From positions 1-11,078 of the IMG/VR virus record IMGVR_UViG_641522623_000003: a stretch of DNA of 11,078 nucleotides; one strand, 5' to 3'. Both the position numbers and the translations under genes were made by a program. The DNA comes from a virus. Taxonomy: Duplodnaviria; Heunggongvirae; Uroviricota; Caudoviricetes. The notes below the pieces were generated by a model, which was not told the origin of the DNA, did not search any database, and saw only the letters and a list, made by a program, of their open reading frames with translations. This document shows, in pieces, positions 583-9,748 of this stretch (positions within the stretch are counted from its first letter, which is position 1; the number at the start of each line of letters is the position of its first letter).

Positions 583-728
583 TGAACCAGAAACAGAAAA
601 AATCATTAATATCAATCCCTTACAATACATTTGGCTTAAAAAATAGACTGTATAATACTGCAAAACACATCATATCCAGTCACTATGAATCAACTACTTA
701 GATAGTATTAGTGACCTGTAACAGAGCA
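583..728 (-). promoter_or_regulatory. attR P-arm (Int arm-type, IHF and Xis binding region), lambda-like but divergent
   Basis: Contains an arm-type Int site CAGTCACTAT (677..686) and TTAGTGACCTG (~709..719). The segment 677..728 matches my recollection of lambda P arm closely, whereas 583..676 differs at many positions. Confidence 0.7.
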
Positions 729-768
729 TTAGCGCAAGGTGATTTTTGTCTTCTTGCGCTAATTTTTT
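729..768 (+). terminator. tI / sib-type hairpin (lambda int retroregulation terminator)
   Basis: Perfect 10-bp stem TTAGCGCAAG (729..738) / CTTGCGCTAA (753..762) with a 14-nt loop, followed by TTTTTT (763..768). Sequence GCGCAAGGTGATTTTTGTCTTCTTGCGC is as I recall for lambda tI/sib. Confidence 0.7.
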
Positions 769-832
769 GTCGTAAAATCGGTAACGGCTGGAAATCATTC
801 AATACTCGCACTATCGAACATCCATCAGCCAG

Positions 833-865
833 CCGTGGCACGTTCTTGCATACGACGTGCCACGG
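833..865 (+). terminator. Second stem-loop in b-region remnant
   Basis: Perfect 10-bp stem CCGTGGCACG (833..842) / CGTGCCACGG (856..865) with a 13-nt loop, followed by TTTCATTTAT. Function unknown. Confidence 0.3.
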
Positions 866-1238
866 TTTCATTTATCTCCGCCCGGAAACTTCTTATACAA
901 AGTCGATACGCCAACATCATAGATGATCGCCACCTTCTGGCGAGAAACTCCTGATGCAATTAGTCGTCCAGCCTGCGCTCATTGCTCCGGCGTGAGAGTA
1001 AGACAGTAAACTGTAGAAAAATCTCATTAAACTTAATATAATAATAAGTTACAAAATTATCTTTACTGAATAATAGATATATGAACATTAGTGAACTTAA
1101 AAACTGTATACACTATGAAGTAATAGGTTATAAACGCCCTTTCTCCTGGCGAAAAGCAATTGTTCGCGCAATAAAACACAGAAGATTACGTTATTTATTT
1201 TGGTGGCGCATAGCAAAATATCTGGTAATGACTCCAAC

Positions 1239-1616
1239 TTATTGATAGTGTTTTATGTTCAGATAATGCCCGATGATTTTGTCATGCAGCTCCACCGATT
1301 TTGAGAACGACAGCGACTTCCGTCCCAGCCGTGCCAGGTGCTGCCTCAGATTCAGGTTATGCCGCTCAATGCGCTGAGTGTAACGCTTGCTGATAACGTG
1401 CAGCTTTCCCTTCAGGCGGGATTCATACAGCGGCCAGCCATCCGTCATCCATATCACCACGTCAAAGGGTGACAGCAGGCTCATAAGACGCCCCAGCGTC
1501 GCCATAGTGCGTTCACCGAATACGTGCGCAACAACCGTCTTCCGGAGCCTGTCATACGCGTAAAACAGCCAGCGCTGGCGCGATTTAGCCCCGACGTATC
1601 CCCACTGTTCGTCCAT
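1239..1616 (-). CDS. insB: IS1 insB reading frame (C-terminal catalytic part of InsAB' transposase)
   Basis: 125-aa track [25 protein letters not shown]…HYLNIKHYQ. The insB frame extends upstream to the A6C site. The nominal insB ATG (minus strand 1742..1740) is followed by TAG at codon 11 (1712..1710), where copy B has TGG. Confidence 0.85.
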
Positions 1617-1660
1617 TTCCGCGCAGACGATGACGTCACTGCCCGGCTGTATGCGCGAGG

Positions 1661-1936
1661 TTACCGACTGCGGCCTGAGTTTTTTAAGTGACGTAAAATC
1701 GTGTTGAGGCTAACGCCCATAATGCGTGCAGTTGCCCGGCATCCAACGCCATTCATGGCCATATCAATGATTTTCTGGTGCGTACCGGGTTGAGAAGCGG
1801 TGTAAGTGAACTGCAGTTGCCATGTTTTACGGCAGTGAGAGCAGAGATAGCGCTGATGTCCGGCGGTGCTTTTGCCGTTACGCACCACCCCGTCAGTAGC
1901 TGAACAGGAGGGACAGCTGATAGAAACAGAAGCCAC
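1661..1936 (-). CDS. insA: IS1 InsA (transposition repressor / N-terminal part of InsAB' transposase)
   Basis: 91-aa [42 protein letters not shown]…, the canonical IS1 InsA with its zinc-finger Cys motif. Confidence 0.9.
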
Positions 1937-2024
1937 TGGAGCACCTCAAAAACACCATCATACACTAAATCAGTAAGTTGGCAGCATCACCCGTTTTTCG
2001 TTATGTATAAATAAGGAGCACACC

Positions 2025-2189
2025 ATGCAATATGCCATTGCAGGGTGGCCTGTTGCTGGCTGCCCTTCCGAATCTTTACTTGAACGAATCACCCGTAAAT
2101 TACGTGACGGATGGAAACGCCTTATCGACATACTTAATCAGCCAGGAGTCCCGAAAAATGGATCAAACAATTATGGCTATCCAGACTAA
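2025..2189 (+). CDS. cIII: Lambda cIII (FtsH/HflB protease inhibitor, stabilises CII)
   Basis: ATG 2025, stop TAA 2187..2189. Translation [54 protein letters not shown] (54 aa). Upstream TTATGTATAAATAAGGAGCACACC includes the RBS. The gene is below the ORF-track length cutoff. Confidence 0.85.
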   Translation: MQYAIAGWPVAGCPSESLLERITRKLRDGWKRLIDILNQPGVPKNGSNNYGYPD

Positions 2190-2301
2190 ATTCACTATCG
2201 CCACTTTTATTGGCGATGAAAAGATGTTTCGTGAGGCCGTCGACGCTTATAAAAAATGGATATTAATACAGAAACTGAGATCAAGCAAAAGCATTCACTA
2301 A
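2158..2301 (+). CDS. kil: Lambda Kil (host cell-division inhibitor)
   Basis: 47-aa [50 protein letters not shown]. It overlaps the cIII 3' end by 32 nt as in lambda. The longer track ORF 2032..2301 is an upstream extension of this frame. Confidence 0.8.
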
Positions 2302-2376
2302 CCCCCTTTCCTGTTTTCCTAATCAGCCTGGCATTTCGCGGGCGATATTTTCACAGCCATTTTCAGGAGTTCAGCC

Positions 2377-2673
2377 ATGAACGCTTATTACATTCAGGAT
2401 CGTCTTGAGGCTCAGAGCTGGGCACGTCACTACCAGCAGATCGCCCGTGAAGAGAAAGAGGCAGAACTGGCAGACGACATGGAAAAAGGCCTGCCCCAGC
2501 ACCTGTTTGAATCGCTATGCATCGATCATTTGCAACGCCACGGGGCCAGCAAAAAAGCCATTACCCGTGCGTTTGATGACGATGTTGAGTTTCAGGAGCG
2601 CATGGCAGAACACATCCGGTACATGGTTGAAACCATTGCTCACCACCAGATTGATATTGATTCAGAGGTATAA
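2377..2673 (+). CDS. gam: Lambda Gam, short form (RecBCD inhibitor)
   Basis: 98-aa [63 protein letters not shown]…, recognised as lambda GamS. The upstream long-form start (ATG 2256) is out of frame here. Confidence 0.9.
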
Positions 2674-2678
2674 AACGG

Positions 2679-3464
2679 ATGAGTACAGCACTCGCAACGC
2701 TGGCTGGGAAGCTGGCTGAACGTGTCGGCATGGATTCTGTCGACCCACAGGAACTGATCACAACTCTTCGCCAGACGGCATTTAAATGTGATGCCAGCGA
2801 TGCGCAGTTCATCGCATTGTTGATCGTCGCCAACCAGTACGGCCTTAATCCGTGGACGAAAGAAATCTACGCCTTCCCTGATAAGCAGAACGGCATCGTT
2901 CCGGTGGTGGGCGTTGATGGCTGGTCCCGCATCATCAATGAAAACCAGCAGTTTGATGGCATGGACTTTGAGCAGGACAATGAATCCTGTACATGCCGGA
3001 TTTACCGCAAGGACCGTAATCATCCGATCTGCGTTACCGAATGGATGGATGAATGCCGCCGCGAACCATTCAAAACTCGCGAAGGCAGAGAAATCACGGG
3101 GCCGTGGCAGTCGCATCCCAAACGGATGTTACGGCATAAAGCTATGATTCAGTGTGCCCGTCTCGCCTTCGGATTTGCTGGTATCTATGACAAGGATGAA
3201 GCCGAGCGCATTGTCGAAAATACCGCATACACTGCAGAACGTCAGCCGGAACGCGACATCACTCCGGTTAACGATGAAACCATGCAGGAGATTAACACTC
3301 TGCTGATCGCCCTGGATAAAACATGGGATGACGACTTATTGCCGCTCTGTTCCCAGATATTTCGCCGCGACATTCGCGCATCGTCAGAACTGACACAGGC
3401 CGAAGCAGTGAAAGCTCTTGGATTCCTGAAACAGAAAGCCACTGAGCAGAAGGTGGCAGCATGA
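2679..3464 (+). CDS. bet: Lambda Bet (Red-beta single-strand annealing protein)
   Basis: 261-aa [38 protein letters not shown]…, full length. Start lies 6 nt after the gam stop. Confidence 0.95.
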
Positions 3465-4141
3465 CACCGGACATTATCCTGCAGCGTACCGGGATCGACG
3501 TGAGAGCTGTCGAACAGGGGGATGATGCATGGCACAAATTACGGCTCGGCGTCATCACCGCTTCAGAAGTTCACAACGTGATAGCAAAGCCCCGCTCAGG
3601 AAAGAAGTGGCCTGACATGAAAATGTCCTACTTCCACACCCTGCTGGCTGAGGTTTGCACCGGTGTGGCTCCGGAAGTTAATGCTAAGGCGCTGGCCTGG
3701 GGAAAACAGTACGAGAACGACGCCAGAACCCTGTTTGAATTCACTTCCGGCGTGAATGTTACTGAATCCCCGATCATCTATCGCGACGAAAATATGCGCA
3801 CTGCCTGCTCTCCCGATGGTTTATGCAGTGACGGCAACGGCCTTGAGCTGAAATGCCCGTTTACCTCCCGGGATTTCATGAAGTTCCGGCTCGGTGGTTT
3901 CGAGGCCATAAAGTCGGCTTACATGGCCCAGGTGCAGTACAGCATGTGGGTGACACGTAAAGATGCCTGGTACTTTGCCAACTATGACCCGCGTATGAAG
4001 CGTGAAGGACTGCATTATGTCGTGGTTGAGCGGGATGAAAAGTACATGGCGAGTTTTGACGAGATGGTGCCGGAGTTCATCGAAAAAATGGACGAGGCAC
4101 TGGCTGAAATTGGTTTTGTATTTGGGGAGCAATGGCGATGA
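3461..4141 (+). CDS. exo: Lambda Exo (Red-alpha 5'-3' dsDNA exonuclease)
   Basis: 226-aa [41 protein letters not shown]…, full length. ATGA overlap with the bet stop. Confidence 0.95.
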
Positions 4142-4320
4142 CGCATCCTCACGATAATATCCGGGTAGGCGCAATCACTTTCGTCTACTCCGTTACAAAG
4201 CGAGGCTGGGTATTTCCCGGCCTTTCTGTTATCCGAAATCCACTGAAAGCACAGCGGCTGGCTGAGGAGATAAATAATAAACGAGGGGCTGTATGCACAA
4301 AGCATCTCCTGTTGAGTTAA
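4138..4320 (+). CDS. Lambda exo-xis region protein, orf60a-like
   Basis: 60-aa [63 protein letters not shown], starting in an ATGA overlap with the exo stop. An alternative ATG at 4132 would give 62 aa. Position and length match lambda orf60a. Confidence 0.7.
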
Positions 4321-4484
4321 GAACGAGTATCGAGATGGCACATAGCCTTGCTCAAATTGGAATCAGGTTTGTGCCAATACCAGTAGAAACAGACGAAGAA
4401 TTTCATACGTTAGCCACATCCCTTTCACAAAAACTGGAAATGATGGTGGCGAAAGCAGAAGCAGATGAGAGAGACCAGGTATGA
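4293..4484 (+). CDS. Lambda exo-xis region protein, orf63-like
   Basis: 63-aa [66 protein letters not shown]. It overlaps orf60a by 28 nt, the same arrangement as lambda orf60a/orf63. Confidence 0.65.
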   Translation: MHKASPVELRTSIEMAHSLAQIGIRFVPIPVETDEEFHTLATSLSQKLEMMVAKAEADERDQV

Positions 4485-4494
4485 CAACCACTGA

Positions 4495-4776
4495 ATGCAT
4501 TTTTCTGGCAGCGGGCTTCATATTCTGTGTGCTTATGCTTGCCGACATGGGGCTTGTTCAGTGACACCTCAGCAGGAAAACGCCCTTCGCAGCATTGCCC
4601 GTCAGGCTAATTCTGAAATCAAAAAAGCCAGACAGCAGTTTCCGGATAAAAACGTCGATGACATTTGCCGTAGCGTACTGAAGAAGCACCGCGAAACGGT
4701 AACGCTGATGGGATTCACACCGACTCATTTAAGCCTAGCAATCGGCATGTTAAACGGCGTTTTTAAGGAACGGTGA
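4495..4776 (+). CDS. Hypothetical protein in exo-xis region (occupies the lambda orf61 position but differs in length)
   Basis: 93-aa ORF; start uncertain, with an in-frame GTG at 4561 as an alternative. An ATG at 4465 in the same frame is followed by TGA at 4492..4494. A 27-codon hydrophobic ORF (4481..4564, MTTTECIFLAAGFIFCVLMLADMGLVQ) overlaps in another frame. Confidence 0.45.
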   Translation: MHFSGSGLHILCAYACRHGACSVTPQQENALRSIARQANSEIKKARQQFPDKNVDDICRSVLKKHRETVTLMGFTPTHLSLAIGMLNGVFKER

Positions 4777-4798
4777 ACATGAAAAGCAAAATCATCAG

Positions 4799-4820
4799 GG
4801 AGCTACAGGCTCCTTTTTTA
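4799..4820 (+). terminator. Weak stem-loop plus U-tract
   Basis: GGAGC (4799..4803) / GCTCC (4809..4813) 5-bp stem followed by TTTTTTA. Lies between the hypothetical ORF and the TraR-like ORF. Confidence 0.25.
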
Positions 4821-4874
4821 TTATTCGCATTCACCCTCAAGCGTATTAACCAACAATTCAGGGATTAATGAAAG

Positions 4875-5096
4875 ATGGCAGACATCATTGATTCAGCATC
4901 AGAAATTGAAGAATTACAGCGCAACACAGCAATAAAAATGCGCCGCCTGAACCACCAGGCTATATCTGCCACTCATTGTTGTGAGTGTGGCGATCCGATA
5001 GATGAACGAAGACGCCTGGCCGTTCAGGGTTGTCGGACTTGTGCAAGTTGCCAGGAGGATCTGGAACTTATCAGTAAACAGAGAGGTTCGAAGTGA
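4875..5096 (+). CDS. TraR/DksA-family C4 zinc-finger protein (lambda Orf73-like)
   Basis: 73-aa ORF with CxxC…(17)…CxxC (CCECGDPIDERRRLAVQGCRTCASC). Size and position between orf61 and ea22 fit the lambda TraR homologue. Confidence 0.8.
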   Translation: MADIIDSASEIEELQRNTAIKMRRLNHQAISATHCCECGDPIDERRRLAVQGCRTCASCQEDLELISKQRGSK

Positions 5097-5506
5097 GCGT
5101 AATTCACTCTCAGGCACTGCGTGAAGCGGCAGAGCAGGCAATGCATGACAACTGGGGATTTGACGCGGACCTTTTCCATGAGCTGGTAACACCATCGATT
5201 GTGCTGACACTGCTGGATGAACGGGAAAGAAACCAGCAGTACATCAAACGCCGCGACCAGGAGAACGAGGATATTGCGCTAACGGTGAGGAAACTGCGTG
5301 TTGAGCTGGAGACAGCAAAAATCAAAACTCAACGAGCAGCGTGAGTAGAAGGTGTTATCTCGGATGGAAGTAAGCGTATTGCTGAACTGGAGGCCTGGGT
5401 TGAATACACAAGAGCTGCATACGTAAGAGCAAAAGACAAGGGAGATTTGATCAGAGTTATTACCCGACAACCAACGGGATTTTACGCTTACGTACCATGT
5501 AATTAG
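5093..5506 (+). pseudogene. ea22-like gene, interrupted by in-frame TGA and shortened
   Basis: GTG start 5093 overlaps the upstream stop. 83 codons (MSVIHSQALREAAEQAMHDNWGFDADLF…) run to TGA 5342..5344. The same frame then stays open for 53 more codons (VEGVISDGSKRIAELEAWVEYTRAAYVRAKDKGDL…) to TAG 5504..5506, with no in-frame start. Confidence 0.45.
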
Positions 5507-5590
5507 GAATCCTTGAAGTGGCAGCCTAACTGCGGATACACTGAAATGGCGATTTGGTAACATGTTTCGCACAAGGGTAGTGACTCCAAC

Positions 5591-6094
5591 TTACTGATAG
5601 TGTTTTATGTTCAGATAATGCCCGATGACCTTGTCATGCAGCTCCACCGATTTTGAGAACGACAGCGACTTCCGTCCCAGCCTTGCCAGATGTTGTCTCA
5701 GATTCAGATTATGTCGCTCAATGCGCTGAGTGTAACGCTTGCTGATAACGTGCAGCTTTCCCTTCAGGCGTGATTCATACAGCGGCCAGCCATCCGTCAT
5801 CCATACCACGACCTCAAAGGCCGACAGCAGGCTCAGAAGACGCTCCAGTGTGGCCAGAGTGCGTTCACCGAAAACGTGCGCCACAACTGTCCTCCGTATC
5901 CTGTCATACGCGTAAAACAGCCAGCGCTGACGTGATTTAGCACCGACGTAGCCCCACTGTTCGTCCATTTCCGCGCAGACGATGACGTCACTGCCCGGCT
6001 GTATGCGCGAGGTTACCGACTGCGGCCTGAGTTTTTTAAATGGCGGAAAATCGTGTTGAGGCCAACGCCCATAATGCGGGCGGTTGCCCGGCAT
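5591..6094 (-). CDS. insB: IS1 InsB (full 167-aa insB frame)
   Basis: 167-aa [19 protein letters not shown]…[10 protein letters not shown]6C frameshift motif present (plus-strand GAGTTTTTTAAA, ~6029..6040). Confidence 0.9.
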
Positions 6095-6288
6095 CCAACG
6101 CCATTCATGGCCATATCAATGATTTTCTGGTGCGTACCGGGTTGAGAAGCGGTGTAAGTGAACTGCAGTTGCCATGTTTTACGGCAGTGAGAGCAGAGAT
6201 AGCGCTGATGTCCGGCAGTGCTTTTGCCGTTACGCACCACCCCGTCAGTAGCTGAACAGGAGGGACAGCTGATAGAAACAGAAGCCAC
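6013..6288 (-). CDS. insA: IS1 InsA
   Basis: 91-aa ORF, 2 aa different from copy A (…[19 protein letters not shown]). Confidence 0.9.
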
Positions 6289-6400
6289 TGGAGCACCTCA
6301 AAAACACCATCATACACTAAATCAGTAAGTTGGCAGCATCACCCGCTTAAAGATAATCAGCCATGATTAAACGCTTTGTAAAAAGTAAAAGGAAATTACA

Positions 6401-7015
6401 ATGAAAAAATCAATACTAATTTTAGGGCTTACGTTAATTGTCTCATCTCAAATACCATCGGCAATGGCAAAAAATGAATCAAGACTTTGGGTTGTTGTTG
6501 ATCGAACGGAAAGACATACCTGCCCTTCAAGTAAATGTGGAGTGGCTGGGAAACTATTTTTCAGGGAAGGCGTAGATTTTCTAGAAAAAAAAGGTGAATG
6601 GGTTCGTATAACTGAGCCATATTCAGCCTCATGTGTGGGAGGGGAAAGCGAATATATTAAAGAAGGTAATAAATCCTGCACAAGAAAAAACGGAATCGTC
6701 AATGGCAAGTTTTCAGAATGGGTTAAACTTAGTGATCTTAGCAGTGAAAGGCCATCAGATCCTGCTGAAAATGCGAGCGGAGATGATACTTTAATCAAAG
6801 GATCTGATGACTACCGTATATACAAAAAAGAGTTTTCTTCGGCAGCTAGGAAGTTAATAAACGAAGGGGTCTGCACGGAAAGCGACTTTAAGGAAATCGG
6901 AGGGTGGATGGCATCAAGCAATAAGGGGAAAAACATCTATTTCACATATTGCGGAGGAATGACGTTGTCGAACAGAATATACCTAGACGTTAAAAGTGGA
7001 AAGACTTTTAGATAA
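6401..7015 (+). CDS. Secreted (Sec signal peptide) Cys-containing hypothetical protein, accessory cargo
   Basis: 204-aa ORF with RBS AAGGA 8 nt upstream. N-terminus MKKSILILGLTLIVSSQIPSAMA↓KNE is a typical signal peptide with AxA cleavage site and no lipobox. Mature part has 6 Cys. The gene is visibly AT-rich versus the flanking lambda genes. No family recognised by eye. Confidence 0.7.
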   Translation: MKKSILILGLTLIVSSQIPSAMAKNESRLWVVVDRTERHTCPSSKCGVAGKLFFREGVDFLEKKGEWVRITEPYSASCVGGESEYIKEGNKSCTRKNGIVNGKFSEWVKLSDLSSERPSDPAENASGDDTLIKGSDDYRIYKKEFSSAARKLINEGVCTESDFKEIGGWMASSNKGKNIYFTYCGGMTLSNRIYLDVKSGKTFR

Positions 7016-7086
7016 TATGATATTACCAATGACAGTATTAATTTAATGCCTCCATAGAATTATCTCTAGGAAGTATGTATAAGAAA

Positions 7087-7120
7087 AGCCCGCACAATGA
7101 GCTGCTGCGGGCTTTGTGTT
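7087..7120 (+). terminator. Rho-independent terminator candidate downstream of secreted-protein gene
   Basis: Stem AGCCCGCA (7087..7094) / TGCGGGCT (7106..7113) with an 11-nt loop, followed by TTGTGTT. Confidence 0.5.
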
Positions 7121-7308
7121 ATTCGCCATATTTTATGAAGCAAATACGACACTATAGATAATTAAGCGTTGCTGGTTGTCGATTCCTCACTCACTCCTGT
7201 TGATGGCTCTCTTCTTGTATGTGCCATTGAAGGGTAATATCGAGTAAAAAGATACCGGAAGTATCCGCGCCGCCATGATTGTCTTTCTCCTAATGCAGGA
7301 AAAGCAGA

Positions 7309-7428
7309 ATGGCTAAATCATCAGCAGAGCGCAAAGTCGATCAGAGAGCCAAGCAAGCATCATCCGGTATGCGTAAGCTGGAGCTTGTACTTGATGCTCA
7401 GGAAATTGAAATGCTGGATCGTAACTGA
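7309..7428 (+). CDS. Small hypothetical ORF (39 aa) whose frame continues past its TGA stop
   Basis: ATG 7309 with AGGAAA 10 nt upstream. Translation MAKSSAERKVDQRAKQASSGMRKLELVLDAQEIEMLDRN, stop TGA 7426..7428. The same frame continues 72 codons to TAA 7645..7647 (ATRRFRHAPYEFGEYIALLSRQDDARVRWRIKSISRKRCGKCGERVPVNSCPCNGDSQCWVTKGWHETKLMI) with no ATG. Confidence 0.35.
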   Translation: MAKSSAERKVDQRAKQASSGMRKLELVLDAQEIEMLDRN

Positions 7429-7675
7429 GCCACGCGCCGCTTCAGGCATGCGCCTTACGAGTTTGGTGAGTACATCGCGTTACTGAGCCGCCAGGATGAT
7501 GCACGTGTGCGCTGGCGTATAAAATCGATCAGCAGAAAACGTTGCGGTAAGTGCGGCGAGAGAGTTCCTGTTAATTCATGCCCGTGTAATGGTGACTCAC
7601 AATGCTGGGTGACCAAAGGCTGGCACGAAACAAAATTAATGATATAAATCTCTGTGACATGTCACGGAGGCGGCA

Positions 7676-8104
7676 ATGAAATTAGACCAGCAATATCTAA
7701 AAGATCTACTTATCGCATTCGAAAAAACTCATGGCCCTGACACGATGCTTAGTGAACTAGAGGATAATGGCTTTAATAGATATGACCAAAATTTTATTTT
7801 CCATATGCGATTATTATGCGACTACGAATTAATAGTCAGGGTTGATGGAAAACCTGGGTTCGGTCATATAATGTCCAACGAGTTAGGGGAAGGTGTTGGA
7901 TATAGTTGGATCGAAGTACCACTGAGGTTGACAGCAAGAGGGCATGATTTTATTGCTGACTTGCGTCAAAAGGAGGTCTGGCAAACTATAAAAACAAACT
8001 TTAAGGATGAGGGAATTAGTACACTAATAAGTGTTTCAAAATCACTAGCAAAAGGCTTTGCAAGGAAAAAGATAAAAGATATTACAGGAATAGATATTGA
8101 ATAA
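7676..8104 (+). CDS. DUF2513-like hypothetical protein (putative winged-helix), accessory cargo at the lambda ea8.5 position
   Basis: 142-aa ORF with strong RBS GGAGG (7666..7670) 5 nt before the ATG. AT-rich codon usage. The motif …RLTARGHDFIADLRQKEVWQTIK… and a basic C-terminal tail resemble my memory of DUF2513 proteins (…LTWxGHEFLDAIRD…VW…). Confidence 0.65.
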   Translation: MKLDQQYLKDLLIAFEKTHGPDTMLSELEDNGFNRYDQNFIFHMRLLCDYELIVRVDGKPGFGHIMSNELGEGVGYSWIEVPLRLTARGHDFIADLRQKEVWQTIKTNFKDEGISTLISVSKSLAKGFARKKIKDITGIDIE

Positions 8105-8186
8105 TTCTTAGCATCAGCAACTACTGCCTTTGGTGGAAATTATATCTGAACTCGCTACGGCGAGTTTTGTTTTATGGAGATGATAA

Positions 8187-8354
8187 ATGCACTTCCGAGT
8201 CACAGGTGAATGGAATGGAGAACCATTCAACAGAGTTATCGAAGCAGAGAACATCAATGACTGCTATGACCACTGGATGATATGGGCGCAGATAGCACAT
8301 GCAGACATAACCAATATTCGAATTGAAGAACTGAAAGAACACCAAGCCGCCTGA
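8187..8354 (+). CDS. Small lambda-like ORF upstream of xis (orf55-like)
   Basis: 55-aa ORF MHFRVTGEWNGEPFNRVIEAENINDCYDHWMIWAQIAHADITNIRIEELKEHQAA with RBS GGAGA 7 nt upstream. Length and position match the small ORF lambda carries between ea8.5 and xis. Confidence 0.55.
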   Translation: MHFRVTGEWNGEPFNRVIEAENINDCYDHWMIWAQIAHADITNIRIEELKEHQAA

Positions 8355-8366
8355 TGGCGGTTTTTT
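8346..8366 (+). terminator. Short stem-loop plus U-tract between orf55-like and xis
   Basis: CCGCC (8347..8351) / GGCGG (8356..8360) with loop TGAT, followed by TTTTTT (8361..8366). It overlaps the orf55 stop codon. Confidence 0.4.
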
Positions 8367-8393
8367 CTTGCGTGTAATTGCGGAGACTTTGCG

Positions 8394-8612
8394 ATGTACT
8401 TGACACTTCAGGAGTGGAACGCTCGCCAGCGACGCCCAAGAAGCCTTGAAACAGTTCGTCGATGGGTGCGCGAATGCAGGATATTCCCTCCTCCGGTTAA
8501 GGATGGAAGAGAATATCTGTTCCACGAATCAGCGGTAAAGGTTGACTTAAATCGACCAGTAACAGGTAGCCTTTTGAAGAGGATCAGAAATGGGAAGAAG
8601 GCGAAGTCATGA
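8394..8612 (+). CDS. xis: Lambda excisionase Xis
   Basis: 72-aa ORF MYLTLQEWNARQRRPRSLETVRRWVRECRIFPPPVKDGREYLFHESAVKVDLNRPVTGSLLKRIRNGKKAKS. Its 3' end overlaps int by 23 nt as in lambda. Confidence 0.92.
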   Translation: MYLTLQEWNARQRRPRSLETVRRWVRECRIFPPPVKDGREYLFHESAVKVDLNRPVTGSLLKRIRNGKKAKS

Positions 8613-9660
8613 GCGCCGGGATTTACCCCCTAACCTTTATATAAGAAACAATGGATATTACTGCTACAGGGACCCAAGGACGGGTAAAGAGTTTGGATTA
8701 GGCCGAGACAGGCGAATCGCAATCACTGAAGCTATACAGGCCAACATTGAGTTATTTTCAGGACACAAACACAAGCCTCTGACAGCGAGAATCAACAGTG
8801 ATAATTCCGTTACGTTACATTCATGGCTTGATCGCTACGAAAAAATCCTGGCCAGCAGAGGAATCAAGCAGAAGACACTCATAAATTACATGAGCAAAAT
8901 TAAAGCAATAAGGAGGGGTCTGCCTGATGCTCCACTTGAAGACATCACCACAAAAGAAATTGCGGCAATGCTCAATGGATACATAGACGAGGGAAAGGCG
9001 GCATCAGCCAAGTTAATCAGATCAACACTGAGCGATGCATTCCGAGAGGCTATGGCTGAAGGCCATATAACAACAAACCCGGTCGCAGCCACTCGCGCTG
9101 CAAAATCAGAGGTAAGGAGATCAAGACTTACGGCTGACGAATACCTGAAAATTTATCAAGCAGCAGAATCATCACCATGTTGGCTTAGACTTGCAATGGA
9201 ACTGGCTGTTGTTACCGGGCAGCGAGTTGGTGATTTATGCGAAATGAAGTGGTCTGATATCGTAGATGGATATCTTTATGTCGAGCAAAGCAAAACAGGC
9301 GTAAAAATTGCCATCCCAACAACATTGCATGTTGATGCTCTCGGGATATCAATGAAGGAAACACTTGATAAATGCAAAAAGATTCTTGGCGGAGAAACCA
9401 TAATTGCATCTACTCGTCGTGAACCGCTTTCATCCGGCACAGTATCAAGGTATTTTATGCGCGCACGAAAAGCATCAGGTCTCTCCTTCGAAGGGGATCC
9501 GCCAACCTTTCACGAGTTGCGCAGTTTGTCTGCAAGACTCTATGAGAAGCAGATAAGCGATAAATTTGCTCAACATCTTCTCGGGCATAAGTCGGACACC
9601 ATGGCATCACAGTATCGTGATGACAGAGGCAGGGAGTGGGACAAAATTGAAATCAAATAA
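8590..9660 (+). CDS. int: Lambda integrase Int (tyrosine recombinase)
   Basis: 356-aa ORF MGRRRSHERRDLPPNLYIRNNGYYCYRDPRTGKEFGLGRDRR… ending …HLLGHKSDTMASQYRDDRGREWDKIEIK. It carries the tyrosine-recombinase residues (…HELRSLSARLY…, catalytic Tyr in SQY) and is transcribed toward attL/ybhC. Confidence 0.95.
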   Translation: MGRRRSHERRDLPPNLYIRNNGYYCYRDPRTGKEFGLGRDRRIAITEAIQANIELFSGHKHKPLTARINSDNSVTLHSWLDRYEKILASRGIKQKTLINYMSKIKAIRRGLPDAPLEDITTKEIAAMLNGYIDEGKAASAKLIRSTLSDAFREAMAEGHITTNPVAATRAAKSEVRRSRLTADEYLKIYQAAESSPCWLRLAMELAVVTGQRVGDLCEMKWSDIVDGYLYVEQSKTGVKIAIPTTLHVDALGISMKETLDKCKKILGGETIIASTRREPLSSGTVSRYFMRARKASGLSFEGDPPTFHELRSLSARLYEKQISDKFAQHLLGHKSDTMASQYRDDRGREWDKIEIK

Positions 9661-9733
9661 TGATTTTATTTTGACTGATAGTGACCTGTTCGTTGCAACA
9701 AATTGATAAGCAATGCTTTTTTATAATGCCAAC
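9661..9733 (-). promoter_or_regulatory. attL P'-arm (Int arm-type sites P'1-P'3, IHF H' site)
   Basis: Reverse complement reads …TTGCTTATCAATTTGTTGCAACGAACAGGTCACTATCAGTCAAAATAAAATCA…, matching the lambda P' arm as I recall it. Arm-type repeats AGGTCACTATCAGTCAAAAT correspond to ~9670..9689. Confidence 0.8.
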
Positions 9734-9748
9734 TTAGTATAAAAAAGC
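9734..9748 (-). other. attL core (15-bp lambda-type overlap/core sequence)
   Basis: TTAGTATAAAAAAGC, identical to 568..582. Followed by AGGCTTCA, the reverse complement of the attB B arm TGAAGCCT. Confidence 0.9.

Follow-up and report, generated by a model that had tools for sequence, protein, structure and literature searches.

The cryptic lambdoid prophages Rac (recET, kilR), Qin (dicB), DLP12 and CP-933K, the last at attλ in O157:H7, are deletion remnants in which int/xis are found along with a recombination module and a gene for a division inhibitor. They occupy standard att sites and have decayed through IS elements and deletions. In Rac and Qin a repressor has survived; RacR silences kilR in the former and DicA silences dicB in the latter. 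The DY380-type recombineering prophage is a defective chromosomal lambda at attλ in which int through exo-bet-gam-kil-cIII is kept. It carries cI857, pL, N and gam-bet-exo together with the deletion Δcro-bioA; Red is inducible.

The relic described here, in Escherichia coli ATCC 8739, shares all the features listed above for the cryptic lambdoids, yet differs from Rac and Qin in being repressor-free and, in our view, silenced through promoter loss. The segment from int to cIII is retained as in the DY380-type prophage, whereas cI857, pL and N are lacking in the natural relic and expression is therefore not inducible. With lambda cIII-kil-gam-bet-exo (31348-33463) it shares gene order, overlaps and ORF lengths, 97.5% nucleotide identity over 3.4 kb and an intact cIII thermoregulator RNA. 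In contrast to lambda, pL, nutL, N, ral, sieB and ea10 are missing, IS1 has taken the place of everything upstream of -33, and the frame for the 138-aa GamL is closed, which is the case in many wild lambdoids. We consider it likely that the region is what remains of the early left arm of a lambda-type prophage, i.e., an ordinary cryptic-prophage relic.

The relic between ybhB and ybhC

The window, i.e., the whole analysed stretch of 11,078 nucleotides, is 100% identical to positions 3138477-3149554 of E. coli ATCC 8739, NZ_CP022959.1. The host is the Crooks strain and the order is ybhB, relic, ybhC, which is the lambda attachment site. The relic is already known. Table 2 of the E. coli W genome paper lists λCr at ybhC-ybhB of E. 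coli Crooks, and this is the same element; in that table it is a catalogue entry alone, without discussion of gene content, IS1 junctions or expression (PMC3032704).

The 15-bp lambda att core, TTAGTATAAAAAAGC, is present at both ends of the relic between ybhB and ybhC, at 568-582 on the bio/ybhB side and at 9734-9748 on the right. Such att-flanking at a known locus, full-length int and xis near one end and the absence from the window of all replication, Q, lysis and morphogenesis genes are the marks of a cryptic lambdoid prophage. When lambda 24094-39496 was compared with the window by BLAST, matches were confined to 564-771, 1992-5391 and 8139-9748. N, nutL, pL, rex and cI had no lambda match in the window, and PGAP as well as Pfam and PHROG scans revealed neither a repressor nor an antiterminator among the relic ORFs. 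The absence of pL, N and cI claimed in an earlier note on this DNA is thus borne out; lambda-like elements for expression from pL via N and nutL under CI control do not exist in the window.

At the left end a lambda-like P arm and a stub of the b-region (583-858) follow the att core. Positions 564-771 are 88-89% identical to lambda attP-side DNA and positions 564-858 are 88% identical to phage Chlobot. Next comes a serine acetyltransferase gene of the b-region, of which the 5' part remains (1081-1223, plus strand; 'missing C-terminus' according to PGAP); it is interrupted by a first IS1 copy of 768 bp (1224-1991, with insAB in minus orientation). The acetyltransferase gene is whole (546 bp) and followed by tfa-stf-lom-J in strains 1585m1 and FDAARGOS_1277. 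The IRL end of the IS1 points toward cIII. Of note, this IS1 has no 9-bp target duplication; its flanks are AAAATATCT and CGTTTTTCG. Direct repeats are absent at IS-adjacent deletions (PMC9330008), and IS1-flanking deletions are frequent and readily formed in ATCC 8739 (PMC11960088). We infer that the IS1 marks a deletion of the tail, head, lysis, Q, nin, replication, immunity, N and ea10 genes. By our own estimate it would have comprised roughly 35-40 kb, with its right end 33 bp 5' of cIII. The spacing of 33 bp given in the earlier note is exact: residual lambda DNA with the cIII Shine-Dalgarno sequence and without a convincing promoter occupies 1992-2024 on the plus strand, and the cIII ATG follows at 2025.

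Beyond exo the remainder of the early left arm (4138-5575, plus strand) contains orf60a, orf63, a 71-aa ORF, a TraR/DksA-like ORF and a truncated ea22; the truncation is common to Chlobot and every relative examined. A second IS1 copy, 95% identical to the first, is located at 5576-6343 on the minus strand. As a marker shared with strain EP91B it was rejected because the insertions in the two strains are independent and lie about 50 bp apart. The int-proximal arm (6344-9748, plus strand) includes a 204-aa ORF, DUF2513, xis (8394-8612) and int (8590-9660), the latter two being full length and on the plus strand. The element would thus have decayed through a single deletion next to an IS1 and a single insertion of IS1, not by point mutation.

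The genes cIII to exo and their relatives

The module is 97.5% identical to lambda at the nucleotide level, and cIII, kil, gamS, bet and exo all have the ORF lengths of lambda and no internal stops, as the earlier note had stated. All five are on the plus strand. cIII (2025-2189) codes for an FtsH inhibitor of 54 aa; it is identical to the Chlobot allele and differs from lambda by a single residue, T49N. The cIII mRNA thermoregulator (Rfam Lambda_thermo, 2012-2070) is complete, covering model positions 1-59 of 59 with 88.5 bits at a gathering score of 50. The end of cIII is overlapped by kil (2158-2301, 47 aa), a predicted FtsZ/ZipA-dependent division inhibitor, which matches phrog_3924 (2.4e-35) and shares 45 of its 47 residues with lambda Kil, the differences being L5I and L38Q. 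gam (2377-2673) encodes the 98-aa GamS form of the putative RecBCD inhibitor with three differences from lambda (L22I, S61A, V92I). The sole disrupted frame is that of the 138-aa GamL, with an additional T (+1) at 2360. The name gamS chosen in the earlier note was therefore correct. We rejected this frameshift as a sign of decay because the viable phage Chlobot has the identical allele.

bet (2679-3464, 261 aa) is predicted to encode the single-strand annealing protein. It differs from lambda in G37C and A255T and from the commonest wild allele in G37C alone. exo (3461-4141, 226 aa), the presumptive lambda exonuclease gene, differs from lambda in S111N, N168D, I189V and I202M and from the commonest allele in S111N alone, which strain PSS-13 has, too. 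Full-length Gam, Bet and Exo on one strand in the order gam-bet-exo constitute a Red module, and the PGAP names agree. Alignment to lambda, which figures in the earlier note's refuting condition, yielded no inactivating substitutions. Gam V92I and Exo S111N are present in other strains, and Bet G37C falls into a variable column (G 49, Q 36, V 14, T 10 and others among 150 family representatives).

How much of the sequence is peculiar to this copy? Compared with a panel of nine sequences at most 9 of 2150 positions are private, private indels are nil, and between 1992 and 4141 no private change is a nonsense or frameshift mutation. The probability that nine random substitutions produce no nonsense codon is about 0.69. 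Three of the private changes are non-synonymous and six are synonymous (P = 0.008 under neutrality), on a branch whose phage and relic phases are inseparable and for which phage alleles are undersampled in the 12-member panel. Such a synonymous bias is a signature of purifying selection, which in principle could have acted in the host instead of an unsampled phage lineage. Among the three 'private' amino acid changes two, Kil L38Q and Gam V92I, circulate elsewhere; the exact Kil allele is widespread, and a 61-mer with Kil L38Q has exact matches in 220 complete-genome records. Confirmed as private to the lineage are Bet G37C and one synonymous site close by, and no others. An uncollapsed prophage with Bet C37 was not found among close relatives.

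The arm itself is common property. In the viable phage Chlobot the order from cIII to int, the truncated ea22 and the GamS allele are all as in the relic. About 80 complete E. coli genomes have the cIII-to-int arm at attλ, and the five-gene module is present in 3114 of 5426 genomes. When five cIII-to-int loci were examined upstream, cI, cro, cII, O and P were intact in four; the fifth, PSJ-12, is collapsed at a ninF'|'N junction, with the module retained. We rejected relics of the PSJ-12 type as proof of long-term retention, since four of the five examined carriers are prophages with an intact immunity region and hence uninformative on retention without a repressor. Other relics at the site carry different lesions, often without the genes: in O157:H7 a ninE|'bet junction has cost kil, gam and part of bet, FDAARGOS_1277 shows tail fibre'-IS1-DUF551' and no Red genes, and in E. 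coli B xis-int is the sole remainder of the arm. Among the 5426 genomes the IS1-truncated form is confined to four assemblies, all from the lineage of ATCC 8739. Retention across diverged hosts which share the same lesion was thus not seen.

Transcription into the module

IS1 carries an outward -35 element, TTGGCA, at its end (PMC8764528). In the first IS1 it is located at 1978-1983, and its best partners are TATGTA at 18 bp and TTATGT at 17 bp. The pair TTGGCA/TATGTA matches the consensus in 8 of 12 positions; the final T is absent. The cIII junction thus shares with IS1 fusion promoters, defined by a -35 and a -10 at 16-18 bp, the outward TTGGCA abutting a gene, yet it lacks a properly spaced -10. 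A strong IS1/cIII hybrid promoter was rejected after consensus and relaxed scans since candidates reach at most 8/12 and lack A2 or T6. The candidate hybrid promoter may still have weak activity. On the plus strand no sigma-70-like site of at least 9/12 exists in 1042-5683 (consensus scan), and no 8/12 site with canonical A2/T6 in 1150-2700 (relaxed scan). The second IS1 provides a fusion-type promoter candidate, TTGGCA-16-GATAAT (6330-6357), which serves the direction of another gene. Weak promoter-like sites on the minus strand are found at 2222-2194 and 2197-2170; as they lie within kil, part of an RNA signal there could be antisense.

Two plus-strand hairpins are candidate terminators. Between kil and gamS, a weak one plus T-run (2326-2343; -9.5 kcal/mol, z -1.9) may be an N-sensitive terminator; its position is presumably that of lambda tL2c/d. 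A strong one in orf60a just past exo (4202-4224; -17.6 kcal/mol, z -3.5) is a candidate intrinsic terminator, at a position which we take to be that of lambda tL3.

Published RNA-seq data of ATCC 8739 bear on the question (PMC5307762, Table S3). They comprise four libraries from engineered derivatives, one per condition and unreplicated; strandedness is unstated in the available portion, from which all of the following values are taken. Kil has 103/59 and 64/39 RPKM, around the 43rd percentile and thus near the median of an unselected slice of 107 genes. The probable cIII has 64/32 RPKM. From kil to bet RPKM values drop about 5-fold; Bet, with 18.7/9.8 and 12.9/12.0, resembles the silent flagellar and hof genes (12-18). 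ORFs past exo have 1-5 RPKM (orf60a 1.3, orf63 3.4, xis 4), and ybhC has 113. This pattern fits weak transcription without antitermination which declines along the operon. The supplements of PMC10989795 and PMC13392391 contain zero rows for module genes.

The earlier note had left two possibilities, a silent module or one weakly driven from the IS1 side, and both stand; these RPKM values favour weak transcription of cIII-kil. Its suggestion that the host might gain Red activity receives little support from a Bet signal of 10-19 RPKM, which resembles that of silent genes.

Origin of the configuration and its meaning

The locus is best explained as what is left of a lambda-family prophage which had integrated at attλ, namely the portion of its pL operon distal to the promoter. 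A single IS1-associated deletion would have taken cI, pL, nutL, N, pR, replication, lysis and morphogenesis together, its endpoint being an accident without selection for Red or Kil. The toxic genes would then have lost their strong promoter and antitermination at the very moment at which the repressor was lost. What had looked like a paradox, intact toxic genes without a repressor, dissolves: no repressor is necessary because pL, nutL and N left along with cI. Likewise, the ORFs are intact because inactivation proceeded by deletion and the retained DNA, an arm as in circulating phages with at most nine private changes, has hardly been altered. The claim that intactness is unexpected does not hold, and a hint of selection in it is not supported, considering the P of about 0.69 and the sister relics which lost kil, gam or bet. 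'Heavily decayed' is an apt description of the deleted gene content; for the retained module DNA, free of private nonsense and frameshift changes, it is not. The deletion appears to be recent. Remaining transcription would enter at a modest level from the IS1 side, span cIII and kil, be mostly gone before bet and end after exo, as in a pL segment without N. It would be tolerated, apparently without a phenotype, and useful Red activity is probably absent.

It is improbable that the module has been domesticated, i.e., that purifying selection in the host keeps cIII-kil-gam-bet-exo since low expression is useful, with Red recombination, RecBCD modulation, Kil/CIII stress tolerance and phage exclusion as proposed benefits. 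All five ORFs are intact, the private substitutions are biased toward synonymous changes, RNA from the kil region is measurable, at least in the RNA-seq table above, and Kil and DUF1382 are flagged in one expression component in the available part of a Crooks RNA-seq compendium (iModulon). However, the bias is not assignable to residence in the host given that two of the three amino acid changes circulate, the configuration is restricted to one strain lineage, and relics at the same site in other lineages lack these genes. Moreover, all remaining small ORFs of the arm, where intact in relatives, are just as well preserved here, thus Red or kil are not singled out. The Bet signal in the same table equals that of silent operons, and users of ATCC 8739 still bring Red on pKD46. 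A more active relic is highly doubtful, too: Kil and CIII would be constitutive at sub-toxic levels, with traces of Gam, Bet and Exo, and purifying selection would act on the module in the Crooks lineage. Just as doubtful is the benefit this would confer, modulation of division or of FtsH proteolysis under stress, or more recombination with incoming DNA or phages.

A fully silent relic, in which the cIII-kil counts reflect antisense RNA, IS1-related spill-over or short-gene noise, we consider rather unlikely. The lack of a plus-strand sigma-70-like site of at least 9/12 in 1042-5683 and of an 8/12 site with canonical A2/T6 in 1150-2700, the overlap of the annotated Kil ORF with cIII, the weak minus-strand candidates and RNA-seq data which, in the portion at hand, are unreplicated and of unstated strandedness agree with it. 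Against it, Kil reaches 39-103 RPKM in all four libraries vs. 1-5 for downstream relic genes, and in this portion of the data the gradient is monotonic along the sense direction. Most of kil lies beyond the coverage of the candidate antisense promoters, and the module is single-copy in the genome, which excludes multi-mapping as a cause.

The preferred reading, a deletion relic with modest leftover transcription, has practical sides. ATCC 8739 is a common strain for quality control and metabolic engineering. The region, 2.1 kb with about 97.5% identity to lambda gam-bet-exo, is a possible recombination partner for Red plasmids of the pKD46 type, which matters to users of the strain. In addition, judging from the available part of one dataset, they have to do with a division-inhibitor gene which is apparently transcribed near the median. 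If the more active relic were true, this would be a natural promoter-swapped, repressor-free domestication of the lambda early-left genes. As it stands, the locus is a worked negative: repressor-free, intact toxic and recombination genes in a prophage stub are, by themselves, no sign of selection. A deletion which removes cI would be survivable solely if pL is disconnected as well, and in a young deletion relic intact ORFs are the default.

The prophage remnant and the missing repressor

The window is 100% identical to positions 3138477-3149554 of NZ_CP022959.1 (E. coli ATCC 8739, Crooks). It starts in ybhB, which adjoins bioA, and ends in ybhC, and thus spans the lambda attachment site. Two intact copies of the 15-bp lambda att core, TTAGTATAAAAAAGC, are located at 568-582 and 9734-9748; the element between ybhB and ybhC therefore is a 9.2-kb prophage remnant. 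It is an ordinary cryptic lambdoid relic which was catalogued previously, i.e., as "λCr" at ybhC-ybhB in Table 2 of the E. coli W genome paper (PMC3032704). Full-length xis (8394-8612) and int (8590-9660) differ from lambda by one and five amino acids, respectively, and with both att cores intact excision of the relic may still be possible. In the b-region stub PGAP marks pseudogene fragments of a 'nucleocapsid protein' and a 'helix-turn-helix domain-containing protein' (698-996, minus strand). They have no Pfam match and are identical among strains having the same left arm, i.e., the ybhB-side stub.

The IS1 copy upstream of cIII (1224-1991, 768 bp) carries insAB on the minus strand and faces cIII with its IRL end. 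Its position 33 bp upstream of cIII, as reported in the earlier note, is exact (IS1 end 1991, cIII ATG 2025). The flanks, AAAATATCT and CGTTTTTCG, lack a 9-bp target duplication, an absence which is the signature of IS-adjacent deletions (PMC9330008). In laboratory evolution of ATCC 8739 IS1-flanking deletions appear readily (PMC11960088). At its left the IS1 cuts short a serine acetyltransferase gene, of which 1081-1223 remains. Strains whose left arm is 99.7-100% identical have this gene intact, with tfa, the tail fibre gene, lom and J behind it. Judged by this gene order, the deletion would have removed the b region, morphogenesis, lysis, Q, nin, replication and immunity, then N and ea10, and would end 33 bp before cIII. 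We infer that about 35-40 kb were lost.

That N, pL and a cognate repressor are missing is confirmed. BLAST against lambda 24094-39496 yielded matches confined to 1992-5391, 8139-9748 and 564-771, with N, nutL, pL, rex and cI unmatched, and Pfam, PHROG and PGAP revealed no repressor or antiterminator among the remaining relic ORFs. pL, nutL and N would have been lost simultaneously with cI, which would explain the absence of a repressor. The apparent paradox is resolved because the deletion which removed cI also took pL together with N or at least its start, as it did in PSJ-12 and O157:H7. A cI deletion is survivable solely when these go too.

Five open reading frames and their substitutions

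The five genes of the module cIII-kil-gamS-bet-exo (1992-4141) are indeed full length, with lambda's lengths and no internal stops. From lambda cIII (2025-2189, 54 aa) differs by 3 nt and 1 aa, kil (2158-2301, 47 aa) by 3 nt and 2 aa, gamS (2377-2673, 98 aa) by 4 nt and 3 aa, bet (2679-3464, 261 aa) by 17 nt and 2 aa, and exo (3461-4141, 226 aa) by 19 nt and 4 aa. In bet 14 codon changes are synonymous and 2 non-synonymous, in exo 15 and 4, respectively. Inactivating substitutions, envisaged in the earlier note, did not emerge on alignment to lambda: no change looks inactivating. A complete cIII translational thermoregulator (Rfam Lambda_thermo, 2012-2070, plus strand, 88.5 bits) starts just 21 bp past the IS1 end.

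The 138-aa GamL frame (2256-2408) is closed by an additional T at 2360. This is not decay because the viable phage Chlobot and the prophages of TB354, NMBU-W12E19 and PSS-13 carry the same allele; such natural variation supports the 98-aa GamS as the functional product. The segment 2377-4141 is about 97.5% identical to lambda gam-bet-exo (31348-33232), the genes on pKD46-type Red plasmids. ATCC 8739 is widely engineered, and during strain construction such plasmids might recombine with this chromosomal copy.

Compared with nine relatives, the module has 9 private substitutions over 2150 bp, and private indels are absent. Circulation was looked up for four of these nine sites, namely Kil L38Q, Gam V92I, and Bet G37C together with the synonymous change beside it. 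Of the three private amino-acid changes two circulate elsewhere as alleles: a 61-mer with Kil L38Q is exact in 220 records, and Gam V92I in 8. Bet G37C with its neighbour is exact only in four ATCC 8739-lineage assemblies (3143 segment-bearing genomes); position 37 is variable among 150 family representatives (G 49, Q 36, V 14, T 10, others). None of the private changes looks inactivating from the sequence.

Intactness had been called unexpected for unselected genes. This view is untenable. In the module ORFs 4.1% of random substitutions create a stop codon, and the probability that all five genes stay open after nine random hits is 0.69. Further, the other small ORFs of the retained arm (cIII to int) which are intact in relatives, including orf60a, orf63, xis and int, are all intact here. 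Judged by reading frames, the kil and Red genes are not singled out. Non-synonymous changes make up 3 of the 9 private ones versus 76% expected under neutrality (P = 0.008). This shows that purifying selection acted while the private changes arose, either on phages outside the sample or within the host. Because the IS1 junction is restricted in its distribution, the phage phase is favoured. That the genes are intact is owed to how, and probably how recently, the element decayed rather than to demonstrated selection.

The retained arm in phages and at attλ

The description as a heavily decayed element is only half correct: a large gene block is, we infer, deleted, but the retained arm is undecayed. 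In the plaque-forming isolate Chlobot the cIII-to-int order, the truncated ea22 and a 615-bp ORF are all as in the relic. At least 80% of the arm is present at attλ in about 80 of 5426 complete E. coli genomes, the five-gene module alone in 3114. Four of the five loci examined upstream of cIII (MB46, JNE132847, fEC.1, 025542-1) retain cI, cro, cII, O and P in intact form; PSJ-12, the remaining one, is deleted in this region. A 339-bp ORF (7309-7647, plus strand) has an internal stop here and also, by the same or another mutation, in PSJ-12 and PSS-13; its counterpart is intact in EP91B and the four loci with cI.

At the same ybhB-ybhC site four strains display four different deletion end-points. 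PSJ-12 kept the module (ninF'/'N deletion). O157:H7 ATCC 43890 (ninE/'bet junction, int frameshifted) lost cIII, kil, gam and the bet N-terminus. FDAARGOS_1277, with an identical left arm, lost the entire module (tail fibre'-IS1-DUF551' deletion), as did E. coli B (ATCC 11303), in which xis-int is the sole remainder of the arm and the ybhC protein allele equals that of ATCC 8739. IS1 linkage occurs in at least one strain besides ATCC 8739. As far as sequences can tell, this series argues against selection for the module genes.

A second IS1 (5576-6343) has an outward -35 TTGGCA spaced 16 bp from GATAAT (10/12 match; 6330-6357, plus strand), which makes this the best promoter-like site on the plus strand around the relic. 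It points towards ORF 6401-7015 (204 aa, signal-peptide-like N-terminus, phrog_8310). In EP91B an independent IS1, flanked by the target duplication GGAAATTAC, lies about 50 bp from this position in the same orientation. The locus may be an insertion hot spot, or the 204-aa ORF may have been activated more than once.

Transcription of the module

Between 1042 and 5683 a consensus scan (9/12 or better) detected no plus-strand sigma-70-like site. The IS1 inverted repeat contains an outward -35, and a hybrid promoter forms only with a correctly spaced -10 (PMC8764528). At the cIII-side junction TTGGCA (1978-1983) is paired with TATGTA at 18 bp spacing, an 8/12 match with the final T missing.

RNA-seq values (RPKM) for Suc-T110, an ATCC 8739 derivative, and an rpoB mutant were taken from Table S3 of PMC5307762 (four libraries, one per condition, strandedness unstated; gam and exo rows left out). 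Suc-T110/mutant values were 226/209 for ybhB (EcolC_2870), 64/32 for probable cIII (EcolC_2873), 103/59 (5% glucose) and 64/39 (12% glucose) for Kil (EcolC_2874), 18.7/9.8 and 12.9/12.0 in the same order for Bet (EcolC_2876), 1.3/0.6 for orf60a (EcolC_2878), 3.4/1.1 for orf63 (EcolC_2879), 3.9/3.0 for TraR-like (EcolC_2881), 4.0/3.0 for xis (EcolC_2888), 33/27 and 18/17 for int (EcolC_2889), and 113/72 for ybhC (EcolC_2890). In an unselected 107-gene slice of this sheet Kil ranks at about the 43rd percentile, and the silent operons fli, hof and fix have 12-18 RPKM. Multi-mapping is not the cause of the signal because the module is single-copy. Kil and orf63 (DUF1382) both belong to component 'Unique_1' in supplementary file 4 of a Crooks RNA-seq compendium (PMC13316221); therefore their RNA levels co-vary in some condition.

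In Table S3 expression is near-median for cIII-kil, about 5-fold lower for bet, and almost nothing past exo. Such a gradient is compatible with weak transcription which comes in from the IS1 side and, lacking N, terminates on the way. Candidate terminators are a weak hairpin at 2326-2343 and a strong one at 4202-4224; in lambda, tL2c/d and tL3, respectively, would lie here. Candidate sources of the transcript are a weak junction promoter, or transcription running through IS1 from its far end or from a promoter-like site at 1014-1042; antisense transcription is a candidate contributor to the RNA signal. The earlier note had considered the module either silent or driven at a tolerated level. Near-median kil RNA favours weak drive. 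A strong promoter at the IS1 junction does not come into question (8/12 match). Host Red activity, a candidate consequence, is unlikely because bet RNA is at background. What is left is a mildly interesting residue: the single available dataset suggests transcription of kil at a level which the host tolerates.
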